From Thermoproteota archaeon (lineage in GTDB: Archaea; Thermoproteota; EX4484-205; JAAOZP01), in the NCBI GenBank assembly GCA_049700215.1, contig JBNAVT010000010.1, positions 1-57,565 on the forward strand: 57,565 nucleotides of DNA, in the 5' to 3' direction. Made by a program: the position numbers and the translations under genes. Below are positions 737-51,046 of this stretch, piece by piece (the first letter of the stretch is position 1; each line of letters opens with the position of its first letter). The notes below the pieces were generated by a model, which made no database searches, was not told the DNA's origin, and worked only from the letters and a program-made list of their open reading frames with translations.

Positions 737-3700
737 CCGAGCGGCTCGATAACTGAGGCAAGCTTCATCATACCCGAGGGTTTTCCAATAGAGCCCGCTA
801 AGAAGCTCTGGCTCTTCGCAGCCCAGCTCATCTCAATGGGTTGTTCAGATGAGGAGATACGCCGAGCCATAAGGGAGGCAAACGATACCCTAGCGCTTCC
901 GGCGCAAATAAGCTACGAGCTTAAGGATTACACCATAATCCCAAAATACGAGGAAATCCGTGTTGATCGAAACAACGAGGGAGGCATATCCGTACAGGTT
1001 CCTTATTTGGCGGTTGATAACCGTGGAAATGAGGTGGATGCAGGTTCCATAAGATATGAGAGCAACAGGACAAACCTATTCCACATCCTATACAGGTATC
1101 CTAAGAAAAGAACCTACCTGGTTAGGTGCATCGACCCAGACGCGTACATCTTCGCATTTATCGACCTGGGGACAGGCGAGGTTTTCAACAAGACCGCTAG
1201 GGTGAATATAGGGCTATTTTCCAACATGAGCCAAGGTTATTTCACTGAAGGTTTCCTCATCGCCGTTCCAGGTCACTTCGAGGAAGTTCGTGAAGCGGTG
1301 GGATCACAGGTCAGCGAGTTTAGAGTTTTACTTCCAGCATACGATCCAATAGTGGTTGATACTTCCATCTCGTCCACTAGAGTGGGAATCGGGGATACCA
1401 TAACGATAACCGCTCAGATAAGGAACCCTCAGGAGATAAGGGGGAGCTACAGGATTTTATTGGGTGTAAGGTTCTCCGATAGTGACGCATTCGAAGCATG
1501 GGCTTCTCCTCCGGGTTCTCTATATTCGATTGTCCCGCTCTACCTGAAGGCTAAGAAGCCGGGAGTTTACACGATCACGATTTACTTCGCCGTCGTCGAA
1601 CCAGAGAATTTGGATGCCGTGTTTTGGAACGGTGGAAAAACAGCAACATATGTTATTACTGTGCTGCCGGAGCCCCCCAAGCTTAAGATCGAGCTGGAAG
1701 CCCAAGCCTTGGCCAAGTTCGCTAACCTAACCGTAACTTTACTAAACAAAGGGGGACAGGAGGCGAGGGATGTCAAGCTATTCATAACTGGAGACGTTGA
1801 GAACAAGGAACTAGGTGTCAGCATAGTCAGGGGCTCGTGGACTGAAAGCTTAGTGGTGAAGCTACTCTCTCCGATCGCCAGCGTTAACGTCACCGTGGTC
1901 TACCACGACCTTGAGGGAAAAAGATACACGAATACAGCGCTGACAACAATCTCAACCGCGAATTTCGTAACCCCAGAGGAGTGGAGAACCTATGTCGTTG
2001 AGGTTGAGGGCTACGAGGAAACTAAGAGGGTCTTCGTCCCGGGCTACAACGGCGCGACACACGTTAGGCTCTACCTCATGGCCAGCGATGCCATACCTGA
2101 GTGTCTCTCCGGTTTACCTCGAGGATTAAGGTTCATCCCAATCTCGCCGAGCGGTTTCACGCTCACACTCGAGAATGCGAGCAACGTCTCCCAAATAACC
2201 TCCAAGGATCCTAATGTGAGGTACATGCTGGTTGATGTTAAACCAACCTTCCTCTGGGAAAAGGCGATGCGAGAGGATGAGGTGAAGAAGCTCCTTCGTA
2301 TCGATGAGGATGAGACTCTGGAGCCAAGCTGGATACCATCGGGCTACGAGATTAGGCTGCTCAGAGAAGAAGTGCTAAGCCAAAGAGAGGTGGTAACAGT
2401 TACCGACGATTTCTACGAGTGGCTCAAATATAACAATTGGGAGGACTACGGTTACAAGTATGAGGACACTGGGGTTAAGAAATGGGACCTGAACAAGGCC
2501 ACGACGAAGCTTTCTCACGGGAAAACTATGGAATTCCTCTATCGTCCATTAGCATATGGAGGAGGCAATCTAGTCCAGGGATTACTCGTCAAGAACTATG
2601 CTGCAATGGATATGGAGTACAGGCTCGAGGTCCTCAGCGGGCCGATAGCGGAGATACAGCCGGATTGCTCCATCATCAACGTCCCGGCTCACGGTAGCGT
2701 CCCGCTAAACCTCGTTCAGCTGGAGGACGCAAGGTTTCCAGTCCTCCTCTCCCTGAAATATGGGGACAGGGTCATAGCATCATTATGGGTGCATTCTACA
2801 GGTGGCAAGGTTTCCGAGTTCTGGAGCGGCTTCTGGGATGGAGTTAAGGAAAGGGCTCCCGGAATAATCCTAACGACAGCGATACTCATAATACTTGCAG
2901 TGCCAACTGGGGGAAGCTCGCTCTTGGCAGAGGTGAAGGCCCTCCTCGCCTCAGCGGTGATTCCCAGCTTAATGGCCATCGGCATAGCTTCGAACATCAG
3001 GGAGATCTTCGAAGCCTATTCGATCTACACAAAGATGGATGAGGTCGCCGAGGTCTTCGAAGGGTATTCTCAGAGGGCTGCGTACGCAGGCTACTTTGAT
3101 TCCCACTTATTCTTCCAAGTCCTAAAGAGCAGAATTAGAGAAGGCCAGGGGCTCGTGGTTGGAAGCACTGCATTAGACCTCCTTACCGACGTGACGATAA
3201 GGGATATCTTCATAACCTTTTGAAAAGAGGATGCGACGGAGTATGAGAAGGGGAAGGCAACAGGAAGACTCGTCGGAGCGGCACTGTCCTTCATCACCTA
3301 CTCAGCCACATATTACAGGTTCCTAAGCGAAGGGCCAAAGCTCCTCTCTTGGGGAGGAAAGATAAAGGCATTCCTGAAGGGAGTCTATAATTGGATAAGC
3401 CCCTCAATATGGGATTTAGGAGTCATCGCGGGAAAGCTGACGGCGCGCGCGCTTAAGTGCTGAGGAACTCGAAGGTTTGAGGAAAGCGATTGTTGAACTT
3501 GGAAGCTTCGAAGACGGGCTTAAACTTTTCGATATTTACTTCATGATTGCAGGGCTGAGTATTTGGGGAAAAGCACAGTTTCTCGACGGGCTCGGCACCA
3601 TAGCGGAGAAGTCGAAGGAAGCTATGGAAAGCGTCATCGAATGGTTGAGCAAGCTCGAGGAGGCGGAGCTGAAGGACGTTATAACTTTAGGGATAATAAG

Positions 3701-5317
3701 CAAGATTAGCACGCTGGACGAGAACGGGCTGAGGAACATTGCCATCGCCCTTGAAGACCCGCGGATAGCGATGGAGCTTGCGGGAGAATACGAGTCGTTG
3801 TCTAAGGTCCTTCCGAAGCTGAGGGGAGCAAACTATTACGAGTTTAGAGATAGGAGGGTTGGTAGGGGAGGACACATATATCTTGGGAAGGAGATAGAAG
3901 CTGGAGATTACAGGATCATAGCCAAGGTGAAAATCGATGGGGAGATAAAAACTATAAGCTGGACGAAAATGAGGGGGGCGGAGGAAAATTATTATATCGA
4001 TTACATCTATGTTCCAAAGAAACTTAGAGATGACCTGGGCATATGTGGAGGGGAAACGGTACTCACGCTCCAGATAGTTAAATACATACCTGAATTCTAT
4101 TTCCCAAGGTCGTTCAGGGATGGCATATTCGTTCTCGACTTCACTGACGAAAAACTGAAAATAGGAGGTGAACTGGTGGATTCTTCGCGGTTCGACCCGG
4201 ATGAGATGTTCAGGGATACTGGCAAAGGCCTTGGCATAACCGTGGAGACAGGAATTAGGAGCACCATCGGAACAGGAAGCCCATTAATGCTCAGGCTATA
4301 CGAGGATGGCTCAATCAGCTTCGTGAAGAGAACAGTAGCCGGGGAGACGGTGGATAACGTTGACGCGATATCCTTGAAAAACACGCTTGAAGAACTCTCG
4401 CTTAAAGAGGGGGGCGTCGAAAGAGTCGTGAGGCTTAAGGAAGGAGAAATACTCTACTTGGAGATGGAGGTACATGGTCACAAATACATATTCCCGATTA
4501 AAACGCTAAGCTACCGGGAGGCGAAGGACTATAAGATATACGTTGATGCTGAAGGTGGAAAGACTACGGCGCTCCTCACATACCTCAAGATAATATTCGG
4601 CTGTGATGCGATTGATGAGATACAGAGGAAAATGGAGGCTGGAGAGTTGAAGCTTGTCGCAACGCTGGAAGATGAAACGAAAGTAACAACCAGAGGACCG
4701 AGAATGGAGATCACAAACGAAGGTTTAGACATTGTTTCAATAGGTTTTTACTCGCCTAAATTAGAGCCGAGACTTACGTTAGAAGAAGCGTATAACTATC
4801 TTAAAAGAATTGGAATAAAAGACGAGTTAATCAACAAGGTCGTCGAGGAATACATCGAGTTCATGGGATATAGTGCAGAGGAAGTTGAAAGCAGAATTGG
4901 AGGAGATATAAACTACTTGGGTGACTACGGCGAATGGATACTAATTGAACACGATGCTCCGAGAGTTACAGGAATAAAGTACAGGGTCTATTTAAACGGT
5001 AAATTGCGTATCGCAGATATTGTGGAAACGGATAGTGTAGTTGAAGTAAAATACTGGAGGAGCAAAGAATCGTATGAAATCTGGTTTGAAAACCCTGTAG
5101 CATTTAATGATTTTGTTAACGATTTGAGGGGAGACAAATATGTTATGGAGAAAAACGGGTTAAGAAAAGTATGTCTTGTTTTTGTAAGAAGGTTTTGAAC
5201 GACGCTACGTTCAACTACTACATGCAAAAGTTGAGGGATGCCTTAGGAGGAGATACGAGCTGGCTTGAAACATTCAATGGCTTTGAAGAATATAAATCGA
5301 AGTATTCGGGGAGATAA
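716..5317 (+). pseudogene. Disrupted paralog of the giant secreted polymorphic-toxin-like protein, with a C-terminal PD-(D/E)xK-like domain
   Basis: Clearly colinear with 51783-56645 from ELEKGKIPS to EFWSGFWDG. Defects: in-frame TGA at 3221, frame change at a (GC)5 tract at 3443-3452, and a frameshift near 5180 (the alternative frame continues KVLNDATFNYY...SGR* to 5317). The C-terminus has GDYGE...IADIV...VVEVK. Confidence 0.75.
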
Positions 5318-5326
5318 AGCCCGCGC

Positions 5327-5914
5327 CTAGTAGACGTATAATTCCCAGCCTCTTTCCTTCCTTAGCTTCTCAGCCTCTCCGAGTGTAAGTACAACTACAA
5401 AAGCAAATTGCCCAGTACCGCCTATAAGATAATACTGATAGCCAGTCTCTTTAATTACCGCGTTAAGCTGAGAAAGAAGGTGCCCTAGGTCTAAAAAGTC
5501 TCCGCCATGGTAATAGCAGTATCCAACAAAGTATCTTCTACCGTTAAAGGTGAAATGAACTCCTGGGCGTTTCCAATTGTCTCTTCCCCATTTTATATCT
5601 GTTGGTTGGAAGATCCCCTTGGAAATTTGAGCAAACTCCATCAAGATTCTTACCTCATCCTCCGGAGAAGGATGATATCCAAATTCGAGATCTCTTCCCC
5701 ATATCCTTTTTGAATCATGGACCACGAGGAAGCGGTCTATCTCGAAAGTGCTCTCATTCATCCAATCATCTTCCTTCAGATTTTTCAATATGATACTCTT
5801 CTCCCTCATCTTCTCGAATATCTCTTCATCAGTCAGGTTGGAATAGTCTTCGAAGAAACCGAGCTTCCTAAGGTATGAGATGGATTCGATGAAGCGCCGC
5901 CTAGCACTACTCAT
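5327..5914 (-). CDS. Hypothetical protein, immunity-protein-like (C-terminus resembles DUF6630)
   Basis: 195 aa from ATG 5914 with TTTTAAAA upstream. C-terminus LNAVIKETGYQYYLIGGTGQFAFVVVLT. Convergent with the toxin paralog. Confidence 0.5.
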   Translation of the reverse strand: MSSARRRFIESISYLRKLGFFEDYSNLTDEEIFEKMREKSIILKNLKEDDWMNESTFEIDRFLVVHDSKRIWGRDLEFGYHPSPEDEVRILMEFAQISKGIFQPTDIKWGRDNWKRPGVHFTFNGRRYFVGYCYYHGGDFLDLGHLLSQLNAVIKETGYQYYLIGGTGQFAFVVVLTLGEAEKLRKERGWELYVY

Positions 5915-6304
5915 TATCCCTATAGTATGAAGAAGCGGTTCTTTTAAAAATTCCCATGGTGTGAACCGCAAGAAGGATTGGTTCGGGAGCCGCCCACGCT
6001 GAATATGCTTCTGGTTTATTTCCTTGTGGAGACAGTTTAGTAAAAGAAAGAGGAATAGACACCTTATCCGCTGGCTGGTTGGTAACCACATGCTTGCAGC
6101 AGGCCCTAGGAATAACTGGCCTATCTATGTGCATTGACGATAAAATCAACATGTATAACTGCTGGAATCAAACGCGTGCTAGAGCCAGTCTATCGGCCGG
6201 AGAAGCTGGGTTCTTACCGAGGAACCCCTGTTATTGCCGGGGGAATGTTTAAAAGCAAGTCTCCACACTATCCTCTCAGGAAAAAAGGAAAGGGGTGATG
6301 AAAG

Positions 6305-6478
6305 TTAGTCACTCATGGCAATATAACACTCGCGGGCAAGGTTCGTAGTCTTACTCCTAAGGTTGCGGCTCGTGAGCGTGCTCCTGATATGCCGCGTAGG
6401 AGGGTTAGGAGTATTTATCGTAAGAGGGTTGTTTTGAATCGTCAGCCTGGCCAGATTTGGAAGCAGATGCGTGTTTAG
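6305..6478 (+). CDS. rps30e: 30S ribosomal protein eS30 (missing from the ORF track; the start position reads TTA)
   Basis: Translates (L)VTHGNITLAGKVRSLTPKVAARERAPDMPRRRVRSIYRKRVVLNRQPGQIWKQMRV*, matching the eS30 signature HG.{3}AGKVR..TPK. A GGGGTGA RBS lies just upstream. Confidence 0.85.
   Translation, partial: LVTHGNITLAGKVRSLTPKVAARERAPDMPRRRVRSIYRKRVVLNRQPGQIWKQMRV
6355..6478 (+). repeat. 124-bp direct repeat, copy 1 (3' part of rps30e)
   Basis: Matches 7803-7926 with 2 mismatches by eye. Confidence 0.95.
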
Positions 6479-6589
6479 ATATTTCTATATTTCTCTAAAC
6501 TAGTCTTTACTAGCTCCTTGTTCACTTCGTTCAACATTTGTTTTTGCTTTTTCGTCTTCCTGTTTTTCAAGCAATATTCCTGTGAACTT

Positions 6590-7012: not shown

Positions 7013-7366
7013 TCAGAGGTTTCTCTTTAAACTCTCCAGAATATTCTGAATCGGTTTTTTAAGAGGAGGAATATCCTCTGTTGCTGTCTTCCATAAAATT
7101 TCTATATCGATTCCAAAGTATTCATGAATTAATTTATCTCTCATTCCTGCCATTTTCTTCCATGGGACCTCCTTATGCCTGTTTTTTATTATCTTTGGGA
7201 TATTCTTCGTCGCCTCCCCTATGACTTCGATGCTTCTCACTACAGCGTTTATCGTTTTCTTATCTTTCTTAAACTCGTCGAAACTCATGCTTCCAATAAA
7301 GCTCTCAATGTCATTAATAGAGTCGAGGATATCCTTAAGATAGTCTTGATAATAGCGCTTCTTCAT
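7013..7366 (-). CDS. HEPN (DUF86/HepT) ribonuclease toxin
   Basis: RSIEVIGEA and GMRDKLIHEY (RxxxxH) motifs. Confidence 0.92.
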   Translation of the reverse strand: MKKRYYQDYLKDILDSINDIESFIGSMSFDEFKKDKKTINAVVRSIEVIGEATKNIPKIIKNRHKEVPWKKMAGMRDKLIHEYFGIDIEILWKTATEDIPPLKKPIQNILESLKRNL

Positions 7367-7659
7367 ACGTAGACTACTTCCTTTAAAATATGCTCGCCAA
7401 TTCTCGGCTTCAACGCCTTTTTCGATACAAGGTCGACTTTTATACCAAGCAGATTCGATAAATATTCTTCCAAGTCCATGAATTCAAAAAGCCCCACGGG
7501 CTCTTCAAACTCGACCAATATGTCAACATCACTGCCTCTTTTCTTCTGCTCCCCCCTAACATAAGAACCGAAGACCCCTATCTCCTTCACTTTGAATCTT
7601 TCCACGAGTTCTTCTTTATGTTCAGTTAATATCTTCTTTATTTCCTCTATTTTCTCCAT
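7363..7659 (-). CDS. Minimal nucleotidyltransferase (MNT) antitoxin
   Basis: FGSYVRGE...SDVDILV. Overlaps the HEPN gene by 4 nt. Confidence 0.92.
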   Translation of the reverse strand: MEKIEEIKKILTEHKEELVERFKVKEIGVFGSYVRGEQKKRGSDVDILVEFEEPVGLFEFMDLEEYLSNLLGIKVDLVSKKALKPRIGEHILKEVVYV

Positions 7660-7802
7660 GCCTCCTTCTTAATTGAGATCAGGGAACCTGACCTTTTAAG
7701 CGTTTTATCTATTCGACGCTTGGAGAATTAGCACGCGCATTCGCAGGATTAAGCCTGCTGTTTCATCCAGGTTCCTTCTAATAGTGGTATAATGTGCACT
7801 CA

Positions 7803-7926
7803 TCCTAGGGTTGCGGCTCGGGAGCGTGCTCCTGATATGCCGCGTAGGAGGGTTAGGAGTATTTATCGTAAGAGGGTTGTTTTGAATCGTCAGCCTGGCC
7901 AGATTTGGAAGCAGATGCGTGTTTAG
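7803..7926 (+). repeat. 124-bp direct repeat, copy 2 (headless rps30e 3' end; att-like)
   Basis: Near-identical to 6355-6478, ends at the rps30e stop codon, and lacks the 5' part of the gene. Confidence 0.95.
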
Positions 7927-8089
7927 TTGTTAGATATTTAGGTTTTTACTGTTTTTAATAATCTGCGTTGTACAGTTCTCTTTGAACTGGTTTTGATGCT
8001 TTTGAGGAGAGAAGCGTTTTCGATCTTTTACTGTGTTGCGAGAAGGGTGAGACGGCTGAATTTCTCGGATCTTTCAGCTCTTTGTTTAG

Positions 8090-10631: not shown

Positions 10632-10643
10632 ATAGCGCGCTAT
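10632..10643. repeat. TA(GC)nTA palindromic junction motif
   Basis: Perfect palindrome ATAGCGCGCTAT immediately after the elp3 stop. Confidence 0.8.
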
Positions 10644-10685
10644 AAATGTTGCAACGCTCAATACGCTTGATGATGCTTAACGAGG

Positions 10686-11255
10686 CTAAAGCGGGCCTCG
10701 GTAATATTTCGTCGACGGGCAGCCTAAACACTTCTTCTCATGGTAGCGTAAGCATCTCCCACAGTTCATTCCGCACGGCGCATCCTCATCCGTCCTTGTT
10801 GCAACCACCTTTACCGGCAAATACTTGGGAACCACCGGCGCCTCGCCTATTATGGCTTCTGAACGCCTTATTCCACCCTTCCGTGCCCTCACGGAGCATC
10901 TTTCTATTATGGCGTTCAGCGTGTCAGCATCCTCAGCCACCATGATGGTCATCAGATTGTAGGCGCCTGTTGTCATGGTTAAGAAAACCATCCTCGGACA
11001 CTTAGAAAACATGTTTACAAGCTCCCGTAGACGCTGAGGCGTTTCAACCTCCGCGTTCACGATGGCGACGCGGAAACCCAGATGCTCCGCGTTCAGCCCG
11101 GCTGAAACCTTAACCAGGCTCTCGGAAAGCTTGTCCAACCTTTTCCCAACAGCTACGTGCGATAAGCCGAGCTCTCTACCTATTGCCAAGAGGGGTGTCC
11201 GACCGTCTTCCTGAAGGATTGATATGATCTTCCTGTCCACTTCATCTAGGCTCAT
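10686..11255 (-). CDS. Lrp/AsnC-family regulator with a Cys-rich C-terminal tail
   Basis: LDEVDRKIISILQEDGRTP HTH, and C-terminal CGMNCGRC...CLGCP. Confidence 0.88.
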   Translation of the reverse strand: MSLDEVDRKIISILQEDGRTPLLAIGRELGLSHVAVGKRLDKLSESLVKVSAGLNAEHLGFRVAIVNAEVETPQRLRELVNMFSKCPRMVFLTMTTGAYNLMTIMVAEDADTLNAIIERCSVRARKGGIRRSEAIIGEAPVVPKYLPVKVVATRTDEDAPCGMNCGRCLRYHEKKCLGCPSTKYYRGPL

Positions 11256-11259
11256 TATG

Positions 11260-11304
11260 TTACAATATGTAAGGTAAAGCGTATATATGTCTTACGGTTT
11301 GTAA
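11260..11304. promoter_or_regulatory. Two TTAC-N5-GTAA operators in a divergent promoter
   Basis: TTACaatatGTAA (11260-11272) and TTACggtttGTAA (11292-11304) flank TATATAT. Confidence 0.55.
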
Positions 11305-11312
11305 TATTACGA

Positions 11313-11825
11313 ATGGTGATGAGTATGGAGGAAGCGTCGGCGCAGAACCCTGGCGAGAAACACGGTGGAGAGGCTAGGGTTTCGAAGGTTGAAAGTGAAA
11401 CGTTTCCGTTCAGGAGGATTCTGGTCCCGTTAGACGGCTCCGAGCATTCGGTGAAAGCGTTGGAAACGGCTGTTCAAATAGCTCTAAAATTCGGCAGCAG
11501 GATCACGCTGGTGCACGTGTACCAGGTTGGCGGCTTCGCAATCTCCCCTACGCCTGTAAACGAGTTTGTTGAGGCAATACGGAAGATGGGTGTAAACATC
11601 TTGGAAGACGGGGAGAAGAGGGTTAAATCCGGGGGGGTTGAGGTCGATAAGCTGCTGGTTGAGGGGCGTCCAGTCGACCAGATAATCAGAACATGCAGGG
11701 AAGGGGGGTTCGACATGATCGTAATGGGTGCAAGGGGGTTAAGCAGAGTGAAGGAGGTTATCTTGGGAAGCGTGAGCGAAGGAGTGGTGAGGCACGCCTC
11801 CTGCCCTGTGCTTGTGGTGAAGTAG
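11313..11825 (+). CDS. Universal stress protein (start may be 11325)
   Basis: RILVPLDGS...DMIVMGARG...LGSVSEGVVRHASCPVLVVK. Confidence 0.93.
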   Translation: MVMSMEEASAQNPGEKHGGEARVSKVESETFPFRRILVPLDGSEHSVKALETAVQIALKFGSRITLVHVYQVGGFAISPTPVNEFVEAIRKMGVNILEDGEKRVKSGGVEVDKLLVEGRPVDQIIRTCREGGFDMIVMGARGLSRVKEVILGSVSEGVVRHASCPVLVVK

Positions 11826-11828
11826 CCG

Positions 11829-13094
11829 ATGGCGTTAGCTGACACCCTGCTCTTAACCGCAATAACGTATTCTATCGCACTAGGTTTCGGCTACTTGTTG
11901 GAGAGATACTTGAGAATGCCATGGATGTTCACACTCGTCTTGTTCGGCATGGTCTTCTCCGCCCTCGGTTTCTTCACGCCAGTCATAAACGACGCGGGCT
12001 TCCAGCTTCTGGCTAAACTAGGAATGCTCGCCCTCCTCTTCATGATCGGCCTAGACTTGAACCTGAAGGAGATGAGGTCGCTGGGAGCATACATCGCGGC
12101 AGGCAGTATCTTCCTCTGCCTTTTCGAAGGCCTCATACTTGCGCTCCTATTCTACTTCTGGTTTCCGGCTGACGTGAACAATTCCTTCACCATCGCGCTG
12201 ATAACGGGCATAACCTTTGGAACAATCGGCGAAGTAGTCCTGTTCGCCATCCTCTCGGAATTCGGCCTGGTGAACACGAAGTTCGGCCAGCTTACTCTTG
12301 GAATAGGGGTTTTCGACGACGTGATGGAGGTTGCGATGCTTGCAGCTGTAGCCAGCCTACCAGTGTTCTCGTTAAGCAGCGCGGCTCAAGCCTCGGGCTT
12401 CATGCTTCCCGTAATATCTTATTTGATACTCTTGCTTCTGGCAACGTTCGCAATAGTGAGGATTGCGGGGCGGGTCAGAAAAGCATTAGAAAACATTGTG
12501 CGTAGCCCGCCCTATGTCCCGCCTTTCCTGATATTCCTAGTGTTCTTTTTCTTCGCCGCTTCAGGCGCGCTGGTGTATGAGACACTGGCCCCTGTAGCCT
12601 CGATAATGGGTGGAATAGTTACGCAGCAGGTGTTCCCTGAGAAGGTTCTTAAGGAGAGCAGGAAGTCAATAGGCTTCCTGGGCAACTTCTTCCTCTCCCC
12701 CTTCTTCTTCCTAGGCCTGGGGGCCAGTGTTTCTCTAGCCTCCATCATCGCCTTCCCGTTACTAATTGTTATAATCTTCCTGGTTTCGTTTGGCTCAAGG
12801 GTTTCAGCCTCCACCCTACTCTTCAACAGGCTGCTCGGGTTGAAATACGCTTTCATAATGGGGATTGGGCTCTGCACGAAGTTCAGTACAAGCATTATTG
12901 CAGAAACGCTTCTCTTAAACTCCGGAGCCATATCCACGAGACTGTTCTCAGCGATGATAGCGACCTACATGGTTATGAAGCCGGTGGTGGCGGGAGCATA
13001 CTCCTGGGGCCTATCCACCGCGAAGAATGGAATCGCCAAGTTGTTCTCCATCGAGGGTTCGAAGCCCTCTTCAGGTGGTGGTGGAAACGCGTGA
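11829..13094 (+). CDS. Cation:proton antiporter (CPA2/Kef-like)
   Basis: About 12 hydrophobic segments, with LLFMIGLDL and GVFDD motifs. Confidence 0.85.
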   Translation: MALADTLLLTAITYSIALGFGYLLERYLRMPWMFTLVLFGMVFSALGFFTPVINDAGFQLLAKLGMLALLFMIGLDLNLKEMRSLGAYIAAGSIFLCLFEGLILALLFYFWFPADVNNSFTIALITGITFGTIGEVVLFAILSEFGLVNTKFGQLTLGIGVFDDVMEVAMLAAVASLPVFSLSSAAQASGFMLPVISYLILLLLATFAIVRIAGRVRKALENIVRSPPYVPPFLIFLVFFFFAASGALVYETLAPVASIMGGIVTQQVFPEKVLKESRKSIGFLGNFFLSPFFFLGLGASVSLASIIAFPLLIVIIFLVSFGSRVSASTLLFNRLLGLKYAFIMGIGLCTKFSTSIIAETLLLNSGAISTRLFSAMIATYMVMKPVVAGAYSWGLSTAKNGIAKLFSIEGSKPSSGGGGNA

Positions 13095-14541: not shown

Positions 14542-14587
14542 GGCCCCGGAAAAACTAATAAGTGTTCCGCAATCTTGAGGAATAAAG

Positions 14588-14963: not shown

Positions 14964-14973
14964 GCGCGCGCGC

Positions 14974-15421: not shown

Positions 15422-15523
15422 ACAAGGGGGCTTTGTTCTATCTTTATTTTCAGCATGTCGAAGGCTTGTAAAAACCTCTTAGGCTTTAAGGTTAAAATAC
15501 TTCTGTGAGCATTCTAGCCCGGG

Positions 15524-19691: not shown

Positions 19692-19820
19692 AATGCTATA
19701 TATAAATTTAGTGACAGTTTGTAGAAATGTTTACACATGCTTTTTCTACACGCGCATTATCCACTTTCCCCTATAAACACCCCATCTTTCAGCAACCGTT
19801 ACGATTCTTAGCGTGTGCTA

Positions 19821-21072: not shown

Positions 21073-21087
21073 TAGCGCGCGCTAGTA
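21070..21087. repeat. 18-bp perfect palindrome containing TAGCGCGCGCTA
   Basis: TACTAGCGCGCGCTAGTA. Confidence 0.9.
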
Positions 21088-40692: not shown

Positions 40693-41043
40693 TCATCGAA
40701 TTTTAACGAATTCTCTTTTAAAATGACGGAAATAAGCCTCCGCCTCATATTCGCTAACTAAATGTATTTCGAAAGGATGTATAAGTGGCACTCCTGCTTC
40801 ATCCAGAATTCTAGTCTTAATTTTAGATCTTCCGGTTAAAGAATTCGATAGCTTCTTCACAATTATTAAGAGATCGATATCTGAGCCTGCTGACGCTTCA
40901 CCCCTCACTAAGCTTCCAAAAAGATAGATTCCGCATAGATTCTCCCCTACTATTTTTTCTGCAGCCCTACTTATTTTGCCAACCCAGTACTCCCAGTTTC
41001 CGAATATTTTAGCTCTTTCCCAAGCAGTTTCTAACGTCCTCAC
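40693..41043 (-). CDS. MNT nucleotidyltransferase antitoxin
   Basis: LFGSLVRG..GSDIDLLI..PFEIHLV. Confidence 0.88.
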   Translation of the reverse strand: MRTLETAWERAKIFGNWEYWVGKISRAAEKIVGENLCGIYLFGSLVRGEASAGSDIDLLIIVKKLSNSLTGRSKIKTRILDEAGVPLIHPFEIHLVSEYEAEAYFRHFKREFVKIR

Positions 41044-41413
41044 AGAGCTTCACCACTTTCTCTGCCAGAGAAATCAGATACTCAGCATCCTCTTTGTCGA
41101 AAGACTTATAAAAGTATCTGCTTGTCAAACATGAATCCTCCAGTGTGTGAAGCCCATTCTTGTTCTCCTTTATGAATTGAGAAACTCCCGTAAAACCTGT
41201 TCGTTCAAGCTCCTTAAGAAGGAAGATTATAGAATGCGTTCTAGGATAATCTCCAACGATTTCAAGCAGCGTGGATTTTAAATAGAGTTGGGCAGCCTGC
41301 TCCGCGTTGAAAGCGGCTACATCGTAATTTCCCTTCCCAGTTAAATACTTGGAAGTCTCCAGAAAAACCGTTGCCCTCCTCCTCATCAGCACCACCTCTT
41401 CCTTAGCACTCAA
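41009..41413 (-). CDS. HEPN-domain protein
   Basis: AAFNAEQAAQLYLK, PRTHS and SRY motifs. Confidence 0.88.
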   Translation of the reverse strand: MSAKEEVVLMRRRATVFLETSKYLTGKGNYDVAAFNAEQAAQLYLKSTLLEIVGDYPRTHSIIFLLKELERTGFTGVSQFIKENKNGLHTLEDSCLTSRYFYKSFDKEDAEYLISLAEKVVKLCEDVRNCLGKS

Positions 41414-41577
41414 TACTTTCTAATATGTTCTGAAACTGGTTTAAAAGGCTATAGATTAGCACGCGCAAACAGCCGTTTGTCAAGATGGTTTAGCCCTATA
41501 TAGCAACGTTTTTACTGTGTAACAAACAATAAGTTTCTCGCTCAGCGATAAGGTTAAATCGCCTGAAAAAGGGGTTT

Positions 41578-43199: not shown

Positions 43200-43404
43200 A
43201 TTTTATGGTTTAAACTATCCGCGGCTTGCAAAGAGAATTATTTGCAGGATACTCCAACCTGTTGTTAACCATCCCGTAAAGATGAAAGCACGTAGCGGAA
43301 TCACGCGTCATATTCTTACTCTAAAAGAAGTTTTAAACCTTAACTAGAATGATCTTACGGTTGATTTTTACTTCTGATGATCAAATTCCTAATGACGCGC
43401 GCGC

Positions 43405-43558: not shown

Positions 43559-43845
43559 CCTGTTTTCCAAGAATTTCGATAATAGGAAAACAAAAAACAG
43601 ACTAGCATTTGCGTAAAACAGGATTCGGGTTAAGGAGATGAAAGCGTAGCGCACGCTAGCTTGACGGTGCGCTTACTTTGATTTGCTTACGTGGCGAATT
43701 TTTCTCTAAAGAAATTATTTATCGTTTTTGGTAAAGGGTTTTAACTGCCAGGTTCCTTTCCTGATGCTACTCTTCAGTTCCTCTCAGTATTAACCCAACT
43801 GGGTAAATAACCGAAAAAAATAAATAGGGATTTAATAACCCATGG

Positions 43846-46551
43846 TTGATGTCTTATCTGAAGGAAGAAATTGCAAGGAGAGTGCATTCCATAAGTGTTG
43901 ACGAGGCATTACGTATACTTAATACAAGTATTAAGGGGCTGTCCAGCGAGGAGGCTAAAGCTAGGCTTGAAAAACATGGTTACAACGAGTTTACTATCGG
44001 TGAAAAGATTTCGCCTTTAAAAATCTTTCTTAACCAGTTTAAAAATATCCTAATACTGATTCTAATCGGTGCGACACTGCTTTCACTAGCTACCGGACAT
44101 GATATTGATGCCCTGGTTATTCTCGTCATAGTTTTCGTGTCGGCTATACTCGGGTTTTACCAGGAGTATCGTGCCGAAAAAGCTTTGGAGGCGCTTAAGA
44201 AAATGCTCAGTCCAACTGTTACTGTGGTAAGGGATTCTAAAGAAGTCACGATACCTCTGAGAGAAGTTGTTCCAGGCGACATACTTGTATTGAAAGAGGG
44301 AGACAGGGTTCCTGCAGACGCTAGATTAATCGAAACGATCAACTTGCGTCTTAACGAGGCTTCCTTGACTGGTGAGTCTGTGCCCGTGTTTAAAGATGTA
44401 GAGCCTCTTCCAGAGGATACGCCTGTTTCAGACAGGAAAAACATGGTTTTCTCTGGAACTGAGGTTGTCGGTGGAAAAGGAAAGGCAGTTGTTGCCGCCA
44501 CAGGTATGAATACGGAGTTTGGCAGAATAGCGAAGGACGTGGCTGCTGCTGAAAAAGAGGAGACACCCTTAGAGAAGAAAGCTAAGGAAATAGGGAAATG
44601 GCTCGGAGGAATAGCGTTGACCATAGTAATCAGTGTGGTAATAATTGGGTTTTATAGGGATATGCCGTTGATAGAGGCTTTGCTTTTCGGCGTTGCTTTA
44701 GCGGTGGCAGCAGTCCCAGAGGCTTTGCCAGCTGTCGTGACGGGTAGCCTTGCCATAGGAATGTATAGGATGGCGAAAAGGAATGCGCTCGTTAGAAGGA
44801 TGCCGGCTGTAGAAACTTTGGGAACAGTGACTGTTATCTGCTCAGATAAGACTGGAACATTAACTAAGGGCGAGATGACTGTTCGGAAAATTTATGTTCT
44901 CGGCAATAGTGTTGAGGTCTCTGGAGTCGGTTATATTCCCGAAGGTACTTTTCATGTCGATAGTGGTGATGTGAAGGTTTTACAGGACGAGGGCTTCAAA
45001 CATTTGATGAAATGTTCGCTTTTATGCAATGATGCTGAGCTGATACGTGAAGATGATAAATGGTTTATTAAGGGAGATCCTACGGAAGGCGCGCTTCTGG
45101 TTGCTGCTGCAAAATCTGGCATGCGGCAGGAGTTGAGAAAAGATTATCCGCGAATAAATGAAGTCCCATTCAGCTCTGAGAGAAAACTTATGACTACTGT
45201 CCACTTGACTCCGGAAGGCGATAAAATTTTCTGTATGAAAGGCGCGCCGGAGAAAGTCTTAGAGAAATGCACTCACATATATGAACTTGACGGTGTTAAG
45301 GAATTAACCGAGGAAAGAAAGAAAGAGATATTGATGGTTAATAATGAGATGGCTGGAAACGCCCTTAGGGTTTTAGGAGTAGCCTGCAAAAGAACAACCG
45401 AGGACGTAAATAATCTGAATGAAGAAGCTGTAGAAAGCAACATGGTGTTCCTTGGCTTGATTGGCATGATGGATCCGCCTAGAGAAGAGGCAATAAAGGC
45501 TGTAGAAATATGCAAGCAAGTAGGGATAAAAACAGTTATGATAACTGGCGACCATAAGCTTACGGCGGTTTCAGTAGCTAAGGAGCTGGGGATCTATAAA
45601 GAAGGTGACTTGGTTTTGACGGGCGAAGAATTGGAGAAGATGTCAGATAGGGAATTAGAGGATATGGTTGAGAAGGTGACGGTTTACGCTCGTGTATCTC
45701 CTGAGCATAAACTGAAAATTGTTCGAGCATGGAAAAACAACGGGCATATTGTTGCGATGACCGGAGATGGGGTTAACGATGCGCCAGCCTTAAAACACGC
45801 TGATATCGGTGTCGCAATGGGTATAACAGGCACGGAGGTCTCTAAAGAAGCTGCGGACATGGTGTTAGCGGATGACAACTTTGCAACAATCGTGAACGCA
45901 ATTGAACTTGGCAGATGGATTTACGATAACATAAAGAAATACCTAACATACCTCTTGCAGGCAAATCTGGTTGAGATATTGATGCTTTCAGTAGCGGTTC
46001 TGCTCGGGTTCCCTATGCCACTGCTTCCAGTACAAATCCTTTACGTAAACCTTGCCACAGATGGTCTTCCCGCCTTAGCCTTAGGTGTAAGCCCACCAGA
46101 CCCAGACATAATGAAGAGGCCTCCTAGAGATCCAAAGGAAACAATATTCACTCGAGAAGTTAAATCGTTTCTTCTGCGTGCATTGATAGTGGAAGTACCT
46201 TTACTCATTTGGTTCTTCTTAGCATCTCTTCCAAATGAAGAATTTGCTCGCTCAAGGGTTTTCATAGCATTCATTCTCTTCGAATTGATTCTGGCATTAA
46301 CTTGCCGTTCATTAAAATATACTATTTTCGAAACGCGTCCCCAAAAGTTCTTGTTAGCAGCTGTCTCTTGGGAAATACTGCTTATGCTGATTCTAATCAG
46401 CTTCCCACTTTCTAGACAGGCACTTGGAATCGTTGAACTAGATCTAACTAGCTTCATATGGGCCATTGGCCTATCGTTAATAACCTTAGCCAGCATTGAG
46501 GGAACCAAGCTCCTGCTTAGGAATTCATCCAAGACTTCTTCCGAGAAATAG
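43846..46551 (+). CDS. P-type cation ATPase (type II, Ca2+-like)
   Basis: TGES, PEALP, DKTGTLT, KGAPE and TGDGVNDAP. Confidence 0.95.
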   Translation: MMSYLKEEIARRVHSISVDEALRILNTSIKGLSSEEAKARLEKHGYNEFTIGEKISPLKIFLNQFKNILILILIGATLLSLATGHDIDALVILVIVFVSAILGFYQEYRAEKALEALKKMLSPTVTVVRDSKEVTIPLREVVPGDILVLKEGDRVPADARLIETINLRLNEASLTGESVPVFKDVEPLPEDTPVSDRKNMVFSGTEVVGGKGKAVVAATGMNTEFGRIAKDVAAAEKEETPLEKKAKEIGKWLGGIALTIVISVVIIGFYRDMPLIEALLFGVALAVAAVPEALPAVVTGSLAIGMYRMAKRNALVRRMPAVETLGTVTVICSDKTGTLTKGEMTVRKIYVLGNSVEVSGVGYIPEGTFHVDSGDVKVLQDEGFKHLMKCSLLCNDAELIREDDKWFIKGDPTEGALLVAAAKSGMRQELRKDYPRINEVPFSSERKLMTTVHLTPEGDKIFCMKGAPEKVLEKCTHIYELDGVKELTEERKKEILMVNNEMAGNALRVLGVACKRTTEDVNNLNEEAVESNMVFLGLIGMMDPPREEAIKAVEICKQVGIKTVMITGDHKLTAVSVAKELGIYKEGDLVLTGEELEKMSDRELEDMVEKVTVYARVSPEHKLKIVRAWKNNGHIVAMTGDGVNDAPALKHADIGVAMGITGTEVSKEAADMVLADDNFATIVNAIELGRWIYDNIKKYLTYLLQANLVEILMLSVAVLLGFPMPLLPVQILYVNLATDGLPALALGVSPPDPDIMKRPPRDPKETIFTREVKSFLLRALIVEVPLLIWFFLASLPNEEFARSRVFIAFILFELILALTCRSLKYTIFETRPQKFLLAAVSWEILLMLILISFPLSRQALGIVELDLTSFIWAIGLSLITLASIEGTKLLLRNSSKTSSEK

Positions 46552-46718
46552 CGCGCTACGGCGTTTATTCAAAGAACAGTGCTGAAAATTATAATCCTTA
46601 TATTTTTACTATTTTTCTCCTATTTAACTTTCCCAAAGGAAGACATACTACCCGATTAAGTTCGCAGGATAATTATAAATCTTAAGCGCGTGCTATGAAA
46701 CTTAGTGTTAGCCTTTGA

Positions 46719-49547
46719 CTACTCCCACTTCCAGACCTTCCTTCCCATGAACAGCTCCGGGAATATAAAGAGCCCCCAGCTTGCTACGCCTATAACGTAT
46801 ACTAGGTCCATTAGGCTTAAACCTGTTAGATGGAATAGTTGCTGCGTTATGGGTATATAGGTTATTCCAAGGGTTAATGCTACGGACACTAAATCAGCTG
46901 TGACGAAGAACTTGTTCTCGAACGCTTTCCTGCCCATTCTCCAGACGCTATGTTTCTCTGAACGGCAGTTCCAGACGACGAAGAGCTCGAACATCGCTGC
47001 CTGCACGAAAGCCGTTGTAGTGGCCTCCCTGTAGGTTAGCTCTCTAGCAACCTCATCTATGATCCCGCCAGGAAGCATCCAAGGGTGAGAAGGCCACACG
47101 TAATACTCTAGGCAGAAAACAAGAATAGTTCCAGTCGCCTGCAGAATGAAGGATGCTATGATAAATGCTCCCATCCCATGTAGTATGCTTTCCTCAGGCT
47201 TGCGCGGCGGCCTATCCATAACATCCATGTCAGGCGGGTCAGTTGCTAGAGCTACTGCTGGCGCACCATCCGTAACAAGATTTATCCAGAGTATCATCGC
47301 CGGCAGGAGTGGGAGTGGGAACATTGCTTCACCGAATATTCCGCCGAGGATTGCGAAGGTTCCTATCACGAGCAGTTCGTCGAAGTTGCATGCCAGCAGG
47401 AAACGCCCATACTTTCTGATGTTATCGTATATCACCCTGCCCTGTTCAACAGCCTTAACTATCGTCGCGAAGTTGTCGTCCGTCAGAATAAGGTCTGAGG
47501 CCTCCTTAGTAACGTCTGTCCCCGTTATACCCATTGCCACGCCAACGTCAGCAGCCTTAACCGCAGGCGCATCGTTAACCCCGTCGCCTGTCATCGCAAC
47601 AATGTGGCCCTTCTTCTTCAAAGCGTTTACAATCCTAAGCTTGTGCTCAGGAGAAACCCTGGCGTAAACCGTCACCTTCTCGACGATCTTCTCAAACTCC
47701 TCGTCGCTCAACTTATCCAACTCCCCACCCGTTAAAACCAAATCACCATCCTTGAAGATGCCTACTTCCTTGGCTACGGCGACAGCCGTAAGCCTGTGGT
47801 CCCCGGTTATCATAACGGTCTTTATGCCTGCTTTCTGGCAAAGCTTATTAGCCTCAACAGCCTCCTCCCTCGGAGGGTCAATCATCCCCTGGAGCCCGAC
47901 GAAAACCATTTCCCTCTCAACAGCCTCATCATCATGATGCTCAAGCATCGTTTCCGGCAGTCGCCTATATGCCATGGCAAGCAGCCTTAGAGCATTCCCC
48001 GCCAGCTTCTCGTTAACCTCAAGAACCCTTCTTCTCCTCTCCTCCGTTAAAACCTTCTCCTCACCATTTTCAAGAATACGGTTGCACCTCTCCAGAACGA
48101 TTTCGGGTGCTCCCTTCATGTAGGCGTGAACTTCCCCCTCCGGGGTTTTATGGATGGTGGTCATACGTTTCCTCTCGGAGGTGAACGGGATCTCCCCAAT
48201 TCTTGGGAAACTCTTCTCCAAAGCCTCTTTCCCAAGCCCAGCCTTAGCGGCTGAGACGATTAGAGCGCCCTCCGTTGGGTCTCCGAAGACCTCCCAAGCA
48301 TTGTTCTGATCATTCCTCCTCAAGCTGGCGTTATTGCATAACGCGCCTATTCTTAGGAGAAGCCCGAGACTTCCCCTTGGTTCAATAGGGTCGTCGCCGA
48401 CCCTGAACTCCCCCTTAGGCTCGTACCCTACTCCAGTTACTTCAACAAGCTTTCCGTCAACGTATATTTGGCGGACAGTCATCTCCCCCTTGGTTATTGT
48501 CCCAGTCTTGTCTGAGCATATCACCGTCACCGCGCCTAGGCTTTCAGCCGAAGACAACCGTCTCACAATAGCGTTCCGCTTCGCAAACTCCCTGGCGCCT
48601 AAGGCGAGCGCTATGGTGACTATCGCCGGAAGCCCCTCTGGGACTGCTGAAATAGCTAGGGCTATTGAGGACATGAAGGCCTGGATAAAGCCCTCGATTT
48701 CAAAATGCATCTGCATAATTACTTCAAAGGCTTCGAGGGCGAAAATTAACACGCAGACGGCGATTACAATCTTAGCTATTTTACTGGCGAACCTGTCGAG
48801 CTTCTTCTGTAGGGGTGTTTCCTCCTCCTCAGCTGTTTGAACCATCTCAGCGATCTTGCCGAACTCGGTGTTCATGCCTGTAGCTACGGCAACAGCCTTC
48901 CCCCTGCCGTAGACAATATGCGTCGCGGAGAAAACCATGTTCTTCCTCTCGGATACTGGAGCATCCTCCTTCAGAACCGTTAACTCTTTTCCAACCGGAG
49001 TGGATTCTCCGGTTAAAACTGCTTCATTCGCCTTCAGCTCAACGGCTTCAATGATGCGAGCGTCAGCAGGAACATGGTCACCCGCCTCCAGTGCGAGAAT
49101 ATCCCCGGGAACCACTTCGCTTGCCGGTATAAATATTTCCTCCCCATCCCTTATTACCCGGGCTTTCGGAGCAGCCAACTTCTTAAGGGCTTCAACAGCC
49201 TTCTCAGCCCTATACTCCTGAACGAAACCCGTGACTGCGCATAAAACAACTATAGCGCTTATCGTAATAACGTCCGCAAACGACTCCATGAATTCACCAC
49301 CCTGTAGCATCTCGTAGTAACCAACTATGGCAGAGAATATCGTTGCGGCGATCAGTAGAATAATAAACACGTCTTTAAATTCGTCCAGGAACATTTGCAG
49401 AGCTGTTCTACGCTTCACCTCCTTGATCTCGTTGGGCCCATATTTTTTAAGACGCTCAGAAGCCTCCTGTGAAGACAAGCCCTCGCGACTCACGCCTAGC
49501 TCCTTTAAAACTTCCTCGACGCTCATAGCATACCAAGGCCTAGACAT
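46719..49547 (-). CDS. P-type cation ATPase (type II, Ca2+-like), second paralog
   Basis: TGES, PEGLP, DKTGTIT, KGAPE, TGDGVNDAP and WINLVTDG. Confidence 0.95.
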   Translation of the reverse strand: MSRPWYAMSVEEVLKELGVSREGLSSQEASERLKKYGPNEIKEVKRRTALQMFLDEFKDVFIILLIAATIFSAIVGYYEMLQGGEFMESFADVITISAIVVLCAVTGFVQEYRAEKAVEALKKLAAPKARVIRDGEEIFIPASEVVPGDILALEAGDHVPADARIIEAVELKANEAVLTGESTPVGKELTVLKEDAPVSERKNMVFSATHIVYGRGKAVAVATGMNTEFGKIAEMVQTAEEEETPLQKKLDRFASKIAKIVIAVCVLIFALEAFEVIMQMHFEIEGFIQAFMSSIALAISAVPEGLPAIVTIALALGAREFAKRNAIVRRLSSAESLGAVTVICSDKTGTITKGEMTVRQIYVDGKLVEVTGVGYEPKGEFRVGDDPIEPRGSLGLLLRIGALCNNASLRRNDQNNAWEVFGDPTEGALIVSAAKAGLGKEALEKSFPRIGEIPFTSERKRMTTIHKTPEGEVHAYMKGAPEIVLERCNRILENGEEKVLTEERRRRVLEVNEKLAGNALRLLAMAYRRLPETMLEHHDDEAVEREMVFVGLQGMIDPPREEAVEANKLCQKAGIKTVMITGDHRLTAVAVAKEVGIFKDGDLVLTGGELDKLSDEEFEKIVEKVTVYARVSPEHKLRIVNALKKKGHIVAMTGDGVNDAPAVKAADVGVAMGITGTDVTKEASDLILTDDNFATIVKAVEQGRVIYDNIRKYGRFLLACNFDELLVIGTFAILGGIFGEAMFPLPLLPAMILWINLVTDGAPAVALATDPPDMDVMDRPPRKPEESILHGMGAFIIASFILQATGTILVFCLEYYVWPSHPWMLPGGIIDEVARELTYREATTTAFVQAAMFELFVVWNCRSEKHSVWRMGRKAFENKFFVTADLVSVALTLGITYIPITQQLFHLTGLSLMDLVYVIGVASWGLFIFPELFMGRKVWKWE

Positions 49548-50048
49548 CCTAATCCCTCTCCGGTTCTCGGCATTATGAGAAAAAAACCATTTATAAGATT
49601 AACTGTTGCAGTTACAACATGGAACCAGTATAATTTCTAACCAGGTCTCATTAACTTGCGGAGTGACCAAAATATTAAAAGCTTCTGGAGCAAGCGGATA
49701 ATTCTAAACCATCCTCCGCCTCCAGTAACTTTTCCTTCTTCTGCTCATTTCTTCAAAAGAGTTTTGAACTTCAAGTGTTCATGCAAGGTGCTTCGGTTAG
49801 TATTTCGAGCAACATTCGTTGTACACTCCGTCATCTTGCAACAATAGTTGGAGCTTCTCTCCTCGATTTTCTTAATCCATCATGCTTTCATCAAACCTTA
49901 ATATTATAACAGTGCTCCACATAGATCGATTAGCACACGCTAAACCAGTCTCTTCCTCGACAACTTGATACGAAAACTCGATTAGGGCTACTGTGAAAGA
50001 AAGTTTCATTGCCCATTAATAACTAGCAGGTGGGATTCAAGGAAAGCT

Positions 50049-50078
50049 AAAAGCTTATATACGAATACGTATTCGTAT
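50049..50078 (+). promoter_or_regulatory. TATA box plus 20-bp palindromic operator
   Basis: AAAAGCTTATAT overlapping the perfect palindrome ATACGAATACGTATTCGTAT (50059-50078). Confidence 0.65.
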
Positions 50079-50083
50079 TACAC

Positions 50084-50341
50084 ATGGTTTCGAGAATAAT
50101 CCCCATAAGATTGAAGGATCAAGAGTTAAGGCAAATAGACCGGCTAGTAGAATATGGCATTTTTCAGTCAAGAAGCGAGGCTATAAGAGAACTCCTAAGA
50201 CTTGGTGTTGAAAACTTAAGCTACATATCTGAAATTTCTAAGGCTTTGAAGAAGATTTCCGAGCTTGAAAAAGTAGAGGGAAGGATACCGATAGACCTCA
50301 GCGGAGCCACTAAGCAACTGTTGAAGGAGAGGGAGAGATGA
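50084..50341 (+). CDS. Ribbon-helix-helix antitoxin
   Basis: IPIRL..IDRLVEYGIFQSRSEAIRE. Confidence 0.85.
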   Translation: MVSRIIPIRLKDQELRQIDRLVEYGIFQSRSEAIRELLRLGVENLSYISEISKALKKISELEKVEGRIPIDLSGATKQLLKERER

Positions 50342-50847
50342 GCTACATAGACACCAGCGTTATTGTAGCTGCGCTTGATCAACTTGACTCTCGACAAAAA
50401 ATAGCACAAAAAACTCTAGAGAAGAAGGAAAACAAGAAAGTTTCGGAGCTTGTGCTAGCTGAACTTGCTAGTATACTCGTCCGCAGAGAAAGCATGCTAC
50501 AAGAGTTCTCTATAAAGATAAAGATAAGAGAGGAACTCGTCGTCCCAGTAATCATTTTATATATAATGAGGAGATTTAAGCTAAGTTATAGGAGAGTTAG
50601 TGGTTATAAAAGAATTTTCCTGATAGGCGATATATACTCGCCGCTCGCAACAGCCATAGATATCTCATCCAAGTTTAAACTGAAAACCCTCGATCTTCTC
50701 CATTTAGCATATATAAAAGCCGTAATAGAACAGGGAGAGGAAATAAACGAACTTATAACAGTAGACGAAGATTTTGAAAGAAGAAAACAATCTATAGATA
50801 GAGAACTAAACGTGAAAGTAAAAACATTAAACAGCCTCTCAGGTTAG
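50338..50847 (+). CDS. PIN-domain toxin
   Basis: YIDTSVIVA, LKTLDLLHLA and ITVDEDF. Confidence 0.88.
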   Translation: MSYIDTSVIVAALDQLDSRQKIAQKTLEKKENKKVSELVLAELASILVRRESMLQEFSIKIKIREELVVPVIILYIMRRFKLSYRRVSGYKRIFLIGDIYSPLATAIDISSKFKLKTLDLLHLAYIKAVIEQGEEINELITVDEDFERRKQSIDRELNVKVKTLNSLSG

Positions 50848-50887
50848 CACCTACTACCCTACTTCAGGCTCTCAACAATCCGTGATT

Positions 50888-51001
50888 TTAGGAAACTGAT
50901 AGAAGTACTAGTGGCGCGAAGACCTCAGCAACCAGCGACATGACTGTAATCATTGTGTTCAACGATGGGCCGGCGGTGTCCTTGAACGGGTCCCCGACGG
51001 T
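50888..51001 (-). pseudogene. hppA: Last 37 codons of a membrane H+/Na+-translocating pyrophosphatase
   Basis: [31 protein letters not shown]...* is the HppA signature, and it starts at the TAGCGCGCGCGCTT motif. Confidence 0.85.
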
Positions 51002-51046
51002 GTAGCGCGCGCGCTTAATCTCTCAAGCCGACTTATCCTTCTTCAC

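Follow-up and report, generated by a model that had tools for sequence, protein, structure and literature searches.

The window analysed here is the whole stretch of 57,565 nucleotides, contig C10 of the archaeal genome G000 (2.09 Mb, 85 contigs, 49% G+C). It encodes GatD/GatE, ELP3 and HypF, and the samples that match it carry run labels of hot-spring metagenomes. Dispersed over it lie short tracts of alternating G and C, which are usually enclosed between A and T and are called A(GC)nT tracts below. A sequence-only reading of the window had placed ten pure tracts and nine variants there. Every one of them is present at its position, and the pattern that they form looks like the scar of a so far undescribed DNA-joining process. 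Comparison genomes are denoted by G-numbers and contigs by C-numbers; the window was compared with five relatives of the same genus, and one stretch of it with 30 relatives. X1 is the probable source run, used as re-assembled Logan contigs, and X2 is a different sample from a different study. Parts of the window without cover in X2, X4 or X5 carry no evidential weight. The pure tracts are as follows.

3443-3452: (GC)5; interrupts, on its 3' side, a truncated member of a multicopy gene family (713-3444); the matches to a paralogue and to relatives end at 3444
10633-10642: TAGCGCGCTA; an old tract between ELP3 and the next gene
14964-14973: (GC)5; replaces ~327-339 bp of eight relatives, namely the end of a DGC-domain gene, the spacer and the start of the next gene
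20510-20523: (GC)7; joins gene X, which lacks ~30 N-terminal codons, to a vWA-like remnant
20621-20629: GCGCGCGCG, (GC)4G; replaces ~1578 bp of G014 and G007 between collinear vWA-like and SNF2 pieces; bridged in X1 and X2
21073-21084: TA(GC)4TA; the homology of a helicase piece to G014 and G007 ends here
27190-27197: (GC)4; marks where a ~190-bp insert ends that lies between convergent genes; the TA that follows, with the last C of the tract, is the stop codon of the rhomboid gene on the minus strand
43396-43404: CGCGCGCGC, (CG)4C; replaces 1.7-3.2 kb of four relatives (G002, G009, G010, G011); its right flank is a membrane-protein remnant
46549-46558: TAGCGCGCTA; the TAG in it terminates a P-type ATPase gene
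51005-51014: (GC)5; cuts a remnant of the H+-pyrophosphatase gene hppA

The variants are the following.

6172-6181: ACGCGTGCTA; no homology break within 12 nt
7729-7738: TAGCACGCGC; no homology break within 12 nt
19809-19820: TAGCGTGTGCTA; edge of the gene X segment, which is inverted relative to G008
21159-21173: TAGCATCGCGCGCCA; start of a block syntenic with G002, G010 and others
37272-37282: AGTGCGCGCTC; directly upstream of a nitroreductase open reading frame whose profile match is limited to the C-terminal part
41457-41466: TAGCACGCGC
43647-43658: TAGCGCACGCTA; the match to G008 begins at 43657
46684-46695: AAGCGCGTGCTA
49931-49942: TAGCACACGCTA

Throughout G000, 274 runs of alternating G and C of at least 8 nt were found, and their lengths are distributed non-monotonically, with peaks at 8 nt (176 runs) and 10 nt (55 runs). 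The octamer GCGCGCGC is the commonest palindromic octamer of this genome. It occurs 339 times per strand, whereas 11.2-28.0 copies are expected genome-wide from Markov models of orders 0-3, an enrichment of 12-30 fold. The canonical word A(GC)4T has 118 copies, A(GC)3T 53 and A(GC)5T 33, as against 2 for A(CG)4T, 2 for T(GC)4A and 1 for T(CG)4A, which served as control words. A dispersed motif had been proposed from the window, and across the genome its enrichment holds. Over 220 tracts, the cap is A at position -1 in 83% and T at position +1 in 83%; T stands at -2 in 54% and A at +2 in 51%, and no conservation was seen farther out. The one-letter variants of the word comprise 71 transitions (8 kinds) and 37 transversions (16 kinds), and are mostly transitions at CpG. 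Outside the tracts, GCGC is mildly depleted (0.74), similarly to other palindromes. Among other words, GTTGAAAA-type octamers and AGGAGGCT, which may stem from a repeat array or from ribosome-binding sites, are also among the commonest octamers of G000, and TAGCTA is its most over-represented palindromic hexamer (338 copies vs 199 expected). TAGCTA was considered as the n = 1 member of the motif and rejected, being gene-borne like other words (20% non-genic). Since its genic placement is that of any word, we treat it as unrelated.

The gene status of the tracts was taken from crude gene calls, which cover 82.6% of G000. Outside these genes lie 208 of the 274 tracts. An open frame of at least 600 nt spans 16% of the tracts vs 77% of 5000 random positions. 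The non-genic share is 83% for A(GC)4T and 64% for A(GC)3T, and for n = 1 or 2 it is at the background of 18-20%. Thus, the effect starts at n of at least 3. Spacers that bear tracts are longer (median 407 nt vs 98 nt). In addition, the tracts are clustered, with 53 neighbour gaps below 500 bp vs 16.6 expected.

In being short, GC-rich, palindromic, vastly over-represented and lineage-specific, the motif recalls the highly iterated palindromes (HIPs) of cyanobacteria, HIP1 and the alternate HIPs (GCGATCGC, GGCGCC and others). The older literature links HIP1 to deletions. With a HIP-like origin, the tracts would be products of methylation-linked mutation bias or of selection for a function, and their place at breakpoints would be secondary. 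The gross over-representation against Markov expectation is of the HIP type, and the predominance of CpG transitions over transversions would also fit. Alternate HIPs are tied to methyltransferases in Elhai 2015 (PMC4390886), where HIPs have 1000-2000 copies per Mb, cognate methyltransferases and a proposed origin by biased substitution; the string GCGCGC has no occurrence in that paper. The tracts studied here reach ~57-131 per Mb, so that HIPs as described there are ten times denser. Furthermore, our tracts are 8-14 nt long, mostly non-genic, and arise as insertions at joints (described below) and not by substitution; substitutions were seen only as their decay. The avoidance of GCGC outside the tracts is unremarkable. 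The C5 methyltransferase family PF00145 was absent from G000 and its motif-rich relatives. The N4/N6 methyltransferase family PF01555 was found in motif-rich and motif-poor genomes alike, and not in the motif-rich G031 and G033. Judged at family level, no methyltransferase tracks the motif in the genomes screened. Several N6_N4 methyltransferase matches (in G003, G011, G012 and others) have one to three in-frame stops or are split, and these may be broken genes. The sequence-only reading had named an iterated palindrome as an alternative; its abundance fits and its mode of origin does not, and we consider it very improbable.

The relation of the tracts to homology breaks was examined by a local BLAST re-run against the relatives. 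Nine of the ten pure tracts lie at most 12 nt from a match end (binomial P ~1e-6), whereas this holds for 17.5% of intergenic positions, and for 21.8% when only those near homology are counted. The tenth, at 3443, coincides with a match end in a separate comparison with relatives. Match ends in the window lie at 3444, 10642, 14957/14970, 20510, 20621/20634, 21072, 27191/27196, 37272, 43396/43404, 43657, 46556 and 51003. With the variants, only two of nine were within 12 nt of a match end, so the breakpoint claim is weak for them. The proposal that tracts mark breakpoints therefore stands for the pure tracts.

Several genes are cut in the window. The remnants are as follows.

713-3444, plus strand: copy of the ~1620-aa multicopy family, 5'-truncated, with the N-terminal part of a gene for an amino-acid kinase joined to it at 713; no tract at 713
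20524-20620, minus strand: vWA-like gene remnant of 97 bp, matched by tblastx to G014:C74 1878-1976 and G007:C53; the vWA label is presumed from a DxSGS motif
20630-21072, minus strand: SNF2-helicase fragment with motifs I-II only; Pfam SNF2-rel_dom, positions 21-138 of 290; no further copy was found elsewhere in G000
50888-51003, minus strand: H+-pyrophosphatase remnant, last ~37 codons; Pfam H_PPase, positions 618-645 of 645, i.e. the last 28 profile positions

The sequence-only reading had listed a series of cut genes. The Pfam search bore this out for the SNF2 helicase piece, for the hppA remnant and for the nitroreductase, of which only the C-terminal part is present, and the DGC-domain gene was found. 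The M50 label of the right flank at 43396 was not confirmed by Pfam, and the PIN/RHH pair is intact. The toxin-antitoxin pairs HepT/MntA, HEPN and PIN/RHH (7013-7659, 41009-41413 and 50051-50847) adjoin tracts or variants and are seemingly intact.

Six deletion joints were resolved to the base, three in the window (14964, 20621 and 43396) and three elsewhere in G000. The sequence lost is 163-182 bp at C19:21973 (present in G011 and G014), 366-369 bp at C19:33852 (present in G011 and G007), and 284 bp at C3:49688 (present in G002 with 92-96% identity). For each of the six joints, one to eight relatives have the intact sequence between the flanks, and in no relative was a tract or GC microhomology detected at either breakpoint. 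The proposal that the tract was added and not inherited is thus borne out at these joints. Further joints are one-sided or rearranged: 3443, 20510, 21073 and 51005 in the window, and C19:23481, where the relatives have a gap of 5-9.6 kb. At 20510, the tract joins gene X, inverted with respect to G008, to the vWA-like remnant. A clean insertion without loss was observed at one in ~24 sites examined (C19:38710); it is 9 nt long, in frame, beside a GCCG seed and not TA-capped.

The ancestral state could be read for 12 caps. Eight are native to the flank and four were added; in three of these four, the next outer base completes TA. At C3:49688, both caps are non-native. The caps fit an insert TA(GC)nTA that would be joined with 0-2 nt of terminal microhomology. 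An equivalent account, in which 3' ends finishing in (T)A would be extended by (GC)k, fits the same bases.

The sequence-only reading had also predicted capture of arbitrary fragments. This was not upheld at the three neighbouring tracts 20510, 20621 and 21073. The pieces between them are collinear with one ancestral vWA-like/SNF2 island, intact to this day in G014 and G007; thus they are remnants of successive deletions and not captures. A further piece of this type of island lies between tracts on C19.

To these comparisons, contigs from X1 and X2 add independent support. A contig from X2 spans 20244-20662 over two tracts, and its sole difference is (GC)6 instead of (GC)7. A contig from X1 bridges 14964. 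In another X1 contig, the 20621 and 21073 joints are present and the 20510 joint is absent, with 205 other letters before 20524; of the last 30 of these, 20 match the intact G014 gene by hand count. Since this contig has only those two joints, with G014-like sequence before 20524, the 20510 event is younger than those at 20621 and 21073 and is polymorphic in the population. Furthermore, the assembly branches C28/C10 and C67/C58 have 54-59 nt in common and part precisely at a tract, which only one of the two paths contains. These results show that the events accumulate stepwise and that the wild population is still polymorphic for some of them.

Alternatively, the tracts could be artefacts that arose when the library was prepared or the reads were assembled, e.g. 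linker chimeras or misjoins. The tracts are over-represented near contig ends: 22 of 274 lie at most 300 bp from an end vs ~6.7 expected from the genome share of these zones, several at the k-mer overlap distance. In addition, one X1 Logan contig ends inside the (GC)7 tract. Against an artefact, the independent sample bridges two junctions, one of them with one GC unit fewer, and the joints are thus not products of the assembly. Tracts at orthologous sites of different species differ in length and show decay, and the motif is limited to certain archaeal lineages, in assemblies whose contig names suggest various assemblers and which include a closed chromosome. An artefact is hardly credible.

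We regard it as the best explanation, with about an even chance of being right, that the A(GC)nT tracts are scars of double-strand-break joining in which the (GC)n filler is made at the joint. Broken ends would be joined with a short self-complementary filler, (GC)3-7, between them. The filler would usually have A and T, or TA and TA, as its borders, using bases common to the flanks (0-2 nt of microhomology), and the event would show as a tract-bearing joint in a deletion, inversion or other rearrangement. Each 3' end may be extended by (T)A(GC)k, either by a tailing activity or by microhomology-primed copying of existing tracts. The GC tails, being self-complementary and heat-stable, could then anneal, and the joint would be trimmed, filled and ligated.

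The tracts persist after they have formed. The tract at 46549 is common to G000 and G008, where it is TA(GC)4TA, one GC unit apart, and a 73-bp indel adjoins it. At the 10633 site, decayed tracts were found in G011 (TAGCATGCGCCA) and G009 (TACTGCGTGCTA). From exactly this tract, G009 lacks window positions 10643-15486, a difference of 4.8 kb. These comparisons show that tracts are long-lived, vary by GC units, decay mostly via transitions and are re-used as breakpoints.

Re-use of this kind bears on the main rival explanation, in which the tract comes first. Here, a rare insertion or the expansion of a GC seed would create the tract, which would then become a fragile or targeted site through Z-DNA, a cruciform, a nuclease or a recombinase. 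Deletions and rearrangements would begin at this site without removing it. In other systems, (GC)n, which has a strong propensity to form Z-DNA, induces deletions. Indels and rearrangements that adjoin tracts shared between species (46549 in G000 and G008; 10633 with G009), lengths that differ in GC units between species and samples, the clustering of the tracts, and the clean 9-nt insertion by the GCCG seed at C19:38710 all speak for this order of events. However, it needs every tract to start as a plain insertion, which was seen at only one of ~24 sites. Closely spaced tracts have persisted in many pairs, and some tracts have stayed stable from one species to another. Nor does it account for caps as terminal microhomology or for the non-native caps at C3:49688. 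Thus, the rival explains the re-use of old tracts and not the scarcity of clean insertions, and we judge it unlikely.

In another explanation, a mobile mini-palindrome TA(GC)nTA would spread first, in the manner of a very small transposable element or of the GC clusters of yeast mitochondria, and recombination between copies would then delete or invert the sequence between them and leave one copy. The TA-like outer flanks, the intergenic and clustered position of the tracts, and the deletions and inversions that a palindromic site allows (gene X is inverted between 19809 and 20510) are consistent with it. G002 has two tracts inside the region missing from G000 at 43396. However, the breakpoints of that deletion bear no tract in G002, and those of the six resolved deletions bear none in any relative. 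Clean insertions are rare. In the self-BLAST of the genome, ten paralogue match ends fall at tracts, each one-sided except for one short pair within C7, and no repeat family with tracts on both sides was found apart from that pair. The Y1 transposase family PF01797 (Y1_Tnp) was detected in 0 of 19 genomes, whereas the control search was positive in 6 of 14 well-known genomes; the search did not extend to DDE transposases and integrases. Tracts as the inverted repeats of a miniature inverted-repeat transposable element (MITE) were rejected, as no such family appeared in the self-BLAST and the element at 27005-27191 has weak partial copies only. We regard the mobile palindrome as quite improbable. 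Specific results contradict recombination between copies, a HIP-like word and an artefact.

Filler synthesis at the joint is itself opposed by several observations. The end state cannot separate a filler made at the joint from an earlier tract with an adjacent deletion. A pure filler model does not predict that tracts are re-used as breakpoints, as seen for the 73-bp indel at 46549 and the 4.8 kb at 10633. One or both caps are missing in ~30% of the tracts. At 713, the N-terminal 131 residues of the amino-acid kinase (347-713) are fused in frame to the family copy at a joint without a tract; this fusion is a rearrangement junction of another kind. The sites examined were partly picked at BLAST match breaks, which favours deletions over plain insertions, and the relatives are not direct ancestors of G000. 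Within the genus, it is the larger genomes that are rich in the motif, an odd finding if the tracts were purely scars of deletion. Finally, none of the eight enzyme families screened tracks the motif; DDE transposases, TnpB and tyrosine and serine recombinases were not searched.

The sequence-only reading had suggested looking for a co-distributed enzyme. Reverse transcriptase, PolX, Prim-Pol, PolY, Ku and the Y1 transposase do not track the motif-rich genomes. Reverse transcriptase (PF00078, RVT_1) was found in 0 of 31 genomes (control search 3 of 14), although a divergent one could escape. Ku (PF02735) was found in 1 of 19 genomes, only in G033. PolX was above the cut-off in G032 and G035 only, Prim-Pol was present in G002 and G033 only, and PolY occurred in motif-rich and motif-poor genomes alike. 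The ~1620-aa (~1600-aa) multicopy family was also considered as the agent. Its copies in the window lie at 51783-56645 (minus strand) and 347-3223 (plus strand); many copies are fragmentary and several are cut by tracts. There are 20 matches in G000, 27 in G006 and 20 in G002, and few or none in the small genomes of the genus. The family has no match in Pfam, NCBIfam or Atlas. It was rejected as the agent because its distribution is restricted to the genus, and the motif-rich genomes labelled Bathyarchaeia gave no match to it.

The distribution of the motif was analyzed in the genus and beyond. The class of G000 comprises 21 genomes at >=80% completeness in the collection. Copy numbers of A(GC)4T in the genus are 118, 88, 70, 33, 32, 18 and 16 for the larger genomes and 0-3 for the rest. 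A scan for TA(GC)5TA, with one genome per species, gave at least 80 matches; among the matches listed, 18 of 80 were labelled Bathyarchaeota or Bathyarchaeia (38-50% G+C), and most others were GC-rich bacteria. In five Bathyarchaeia-labelled genomes, the 10-mer A(GC)4T has 94, 121, 45, 21 and 1 copies vs 0-6 for the control. The genomes with 94 copies (G031) and 1 copy (G032) are both labelled closed chromosomes. In the Bathyarchaeia-labelled loci, the tracts avoid long open frames (18% vs 60%). Except for one 77-nt match, these loci have no DNA similarity to G000; thus, at least two archaeal lineages show the phenomenon, with a patchy distribution. Among viral contigs, 36 stretches with TA(GC)5TA were found, mostly in GC-rich background and a few in low-GC background; no sign of a viral terminus was seen in them.

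Other features of the window are as follows. Of the ~190-bp insert at 27005-27191, G010 and G011 hold partial copies and G000 weak ones, and each relative has a different insert at this spot. At 6278-6494, a stretch of ~170-220 bp is ~90% conserved in four relatives while its surroundings are unconserved, and a second copy lies at ~7793-7930; no Rfam match reached the gathering score. Two convergent, paralogous P-type cation ATPase genes (43846-46551, plus strand; 46719-49547, minus strand) cross-match each other.

Known systems resemble the tracts in part. Yeast mitochondrial GC clusters are deletion hot spots. According to PMC4478555, these GC-rich palindromes lie in spacers, are dynamic from strain to strain, carry short putative target-site duplications and arise by a mechanism that the paper leaves unresolved; they are longer, structured elements (GC42 and its relatives), inserted whole at sites that are intact. 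In contrast, the tracts here are 8-14 nt long and show flank loss or rearrangement at all of the ~24 sites examined except one. The repetitive extragenic palindromes (REP and REPIN) are likewise numerous and extragenic. REPs are longer imperfect palindromes with a conserved head and are mobilised by a Y1 transposase, a family not detected in the 19 genomes searched. For a footprint of MITEs or of TA-duplicating elements (IS630/Tc1-like), we found no two-ended family and only the single clean insertion in ~24 sites, which is not TA-capped; DDE families were not searched. Extra nucleotides at joints, with microhomology at the edges, are produced by N-addition by TdT, templated insertion by polymerase theta and addition by LigD, and chromosome healing by de novo telomere addition adds a fixed repeat to a broken end. 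The filler here differs from these in being one fixed self-complementary sequence. Ku/LigD end-joining is not indicated, Ku being present in 1 of 19 genomes. Healing by a telomerase-like enzyme or a reverse transcriptase is not indicated by the 31 genomes searched for the latter, with the same reservation for a divergent enzyme. A description of the A(GC)nT motif was not found in a limited literature set without supplements.

If filler synthesis at the joint is extended further, we would tentatively picture a dedicated, horizontally mobile archaeal end-healing system that adds (T)A(GC)n to 3' ends and joins them without homology, Ku or a partner template; the tracts would be its fossil record and its preferred points of re-entry. 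We hold this with clearly less confidence than the scar explanation itself. Since the 10-mer is iterated, patchily, in a second archaeal class, phylogenetic profiling could reveal the responsible gene. Any enzyme capable of appending a defined repeat to the ends of DNA would also make an interesting tool.

The homology-free joining of broken chromosomes in archaea without Ku is poorly understood. A sequence-specific, self-complementary filler, if true, would be a new principle of end-joining and a mutational signature readable from the genome. Such a signature would permit deletions and rearrangements to be counted and dated in uncultured archaea. In addition, it would explain the whittling of accessory and defence islands seen here for the SNF2/vWA-like island, hppA and members of the large gene family.

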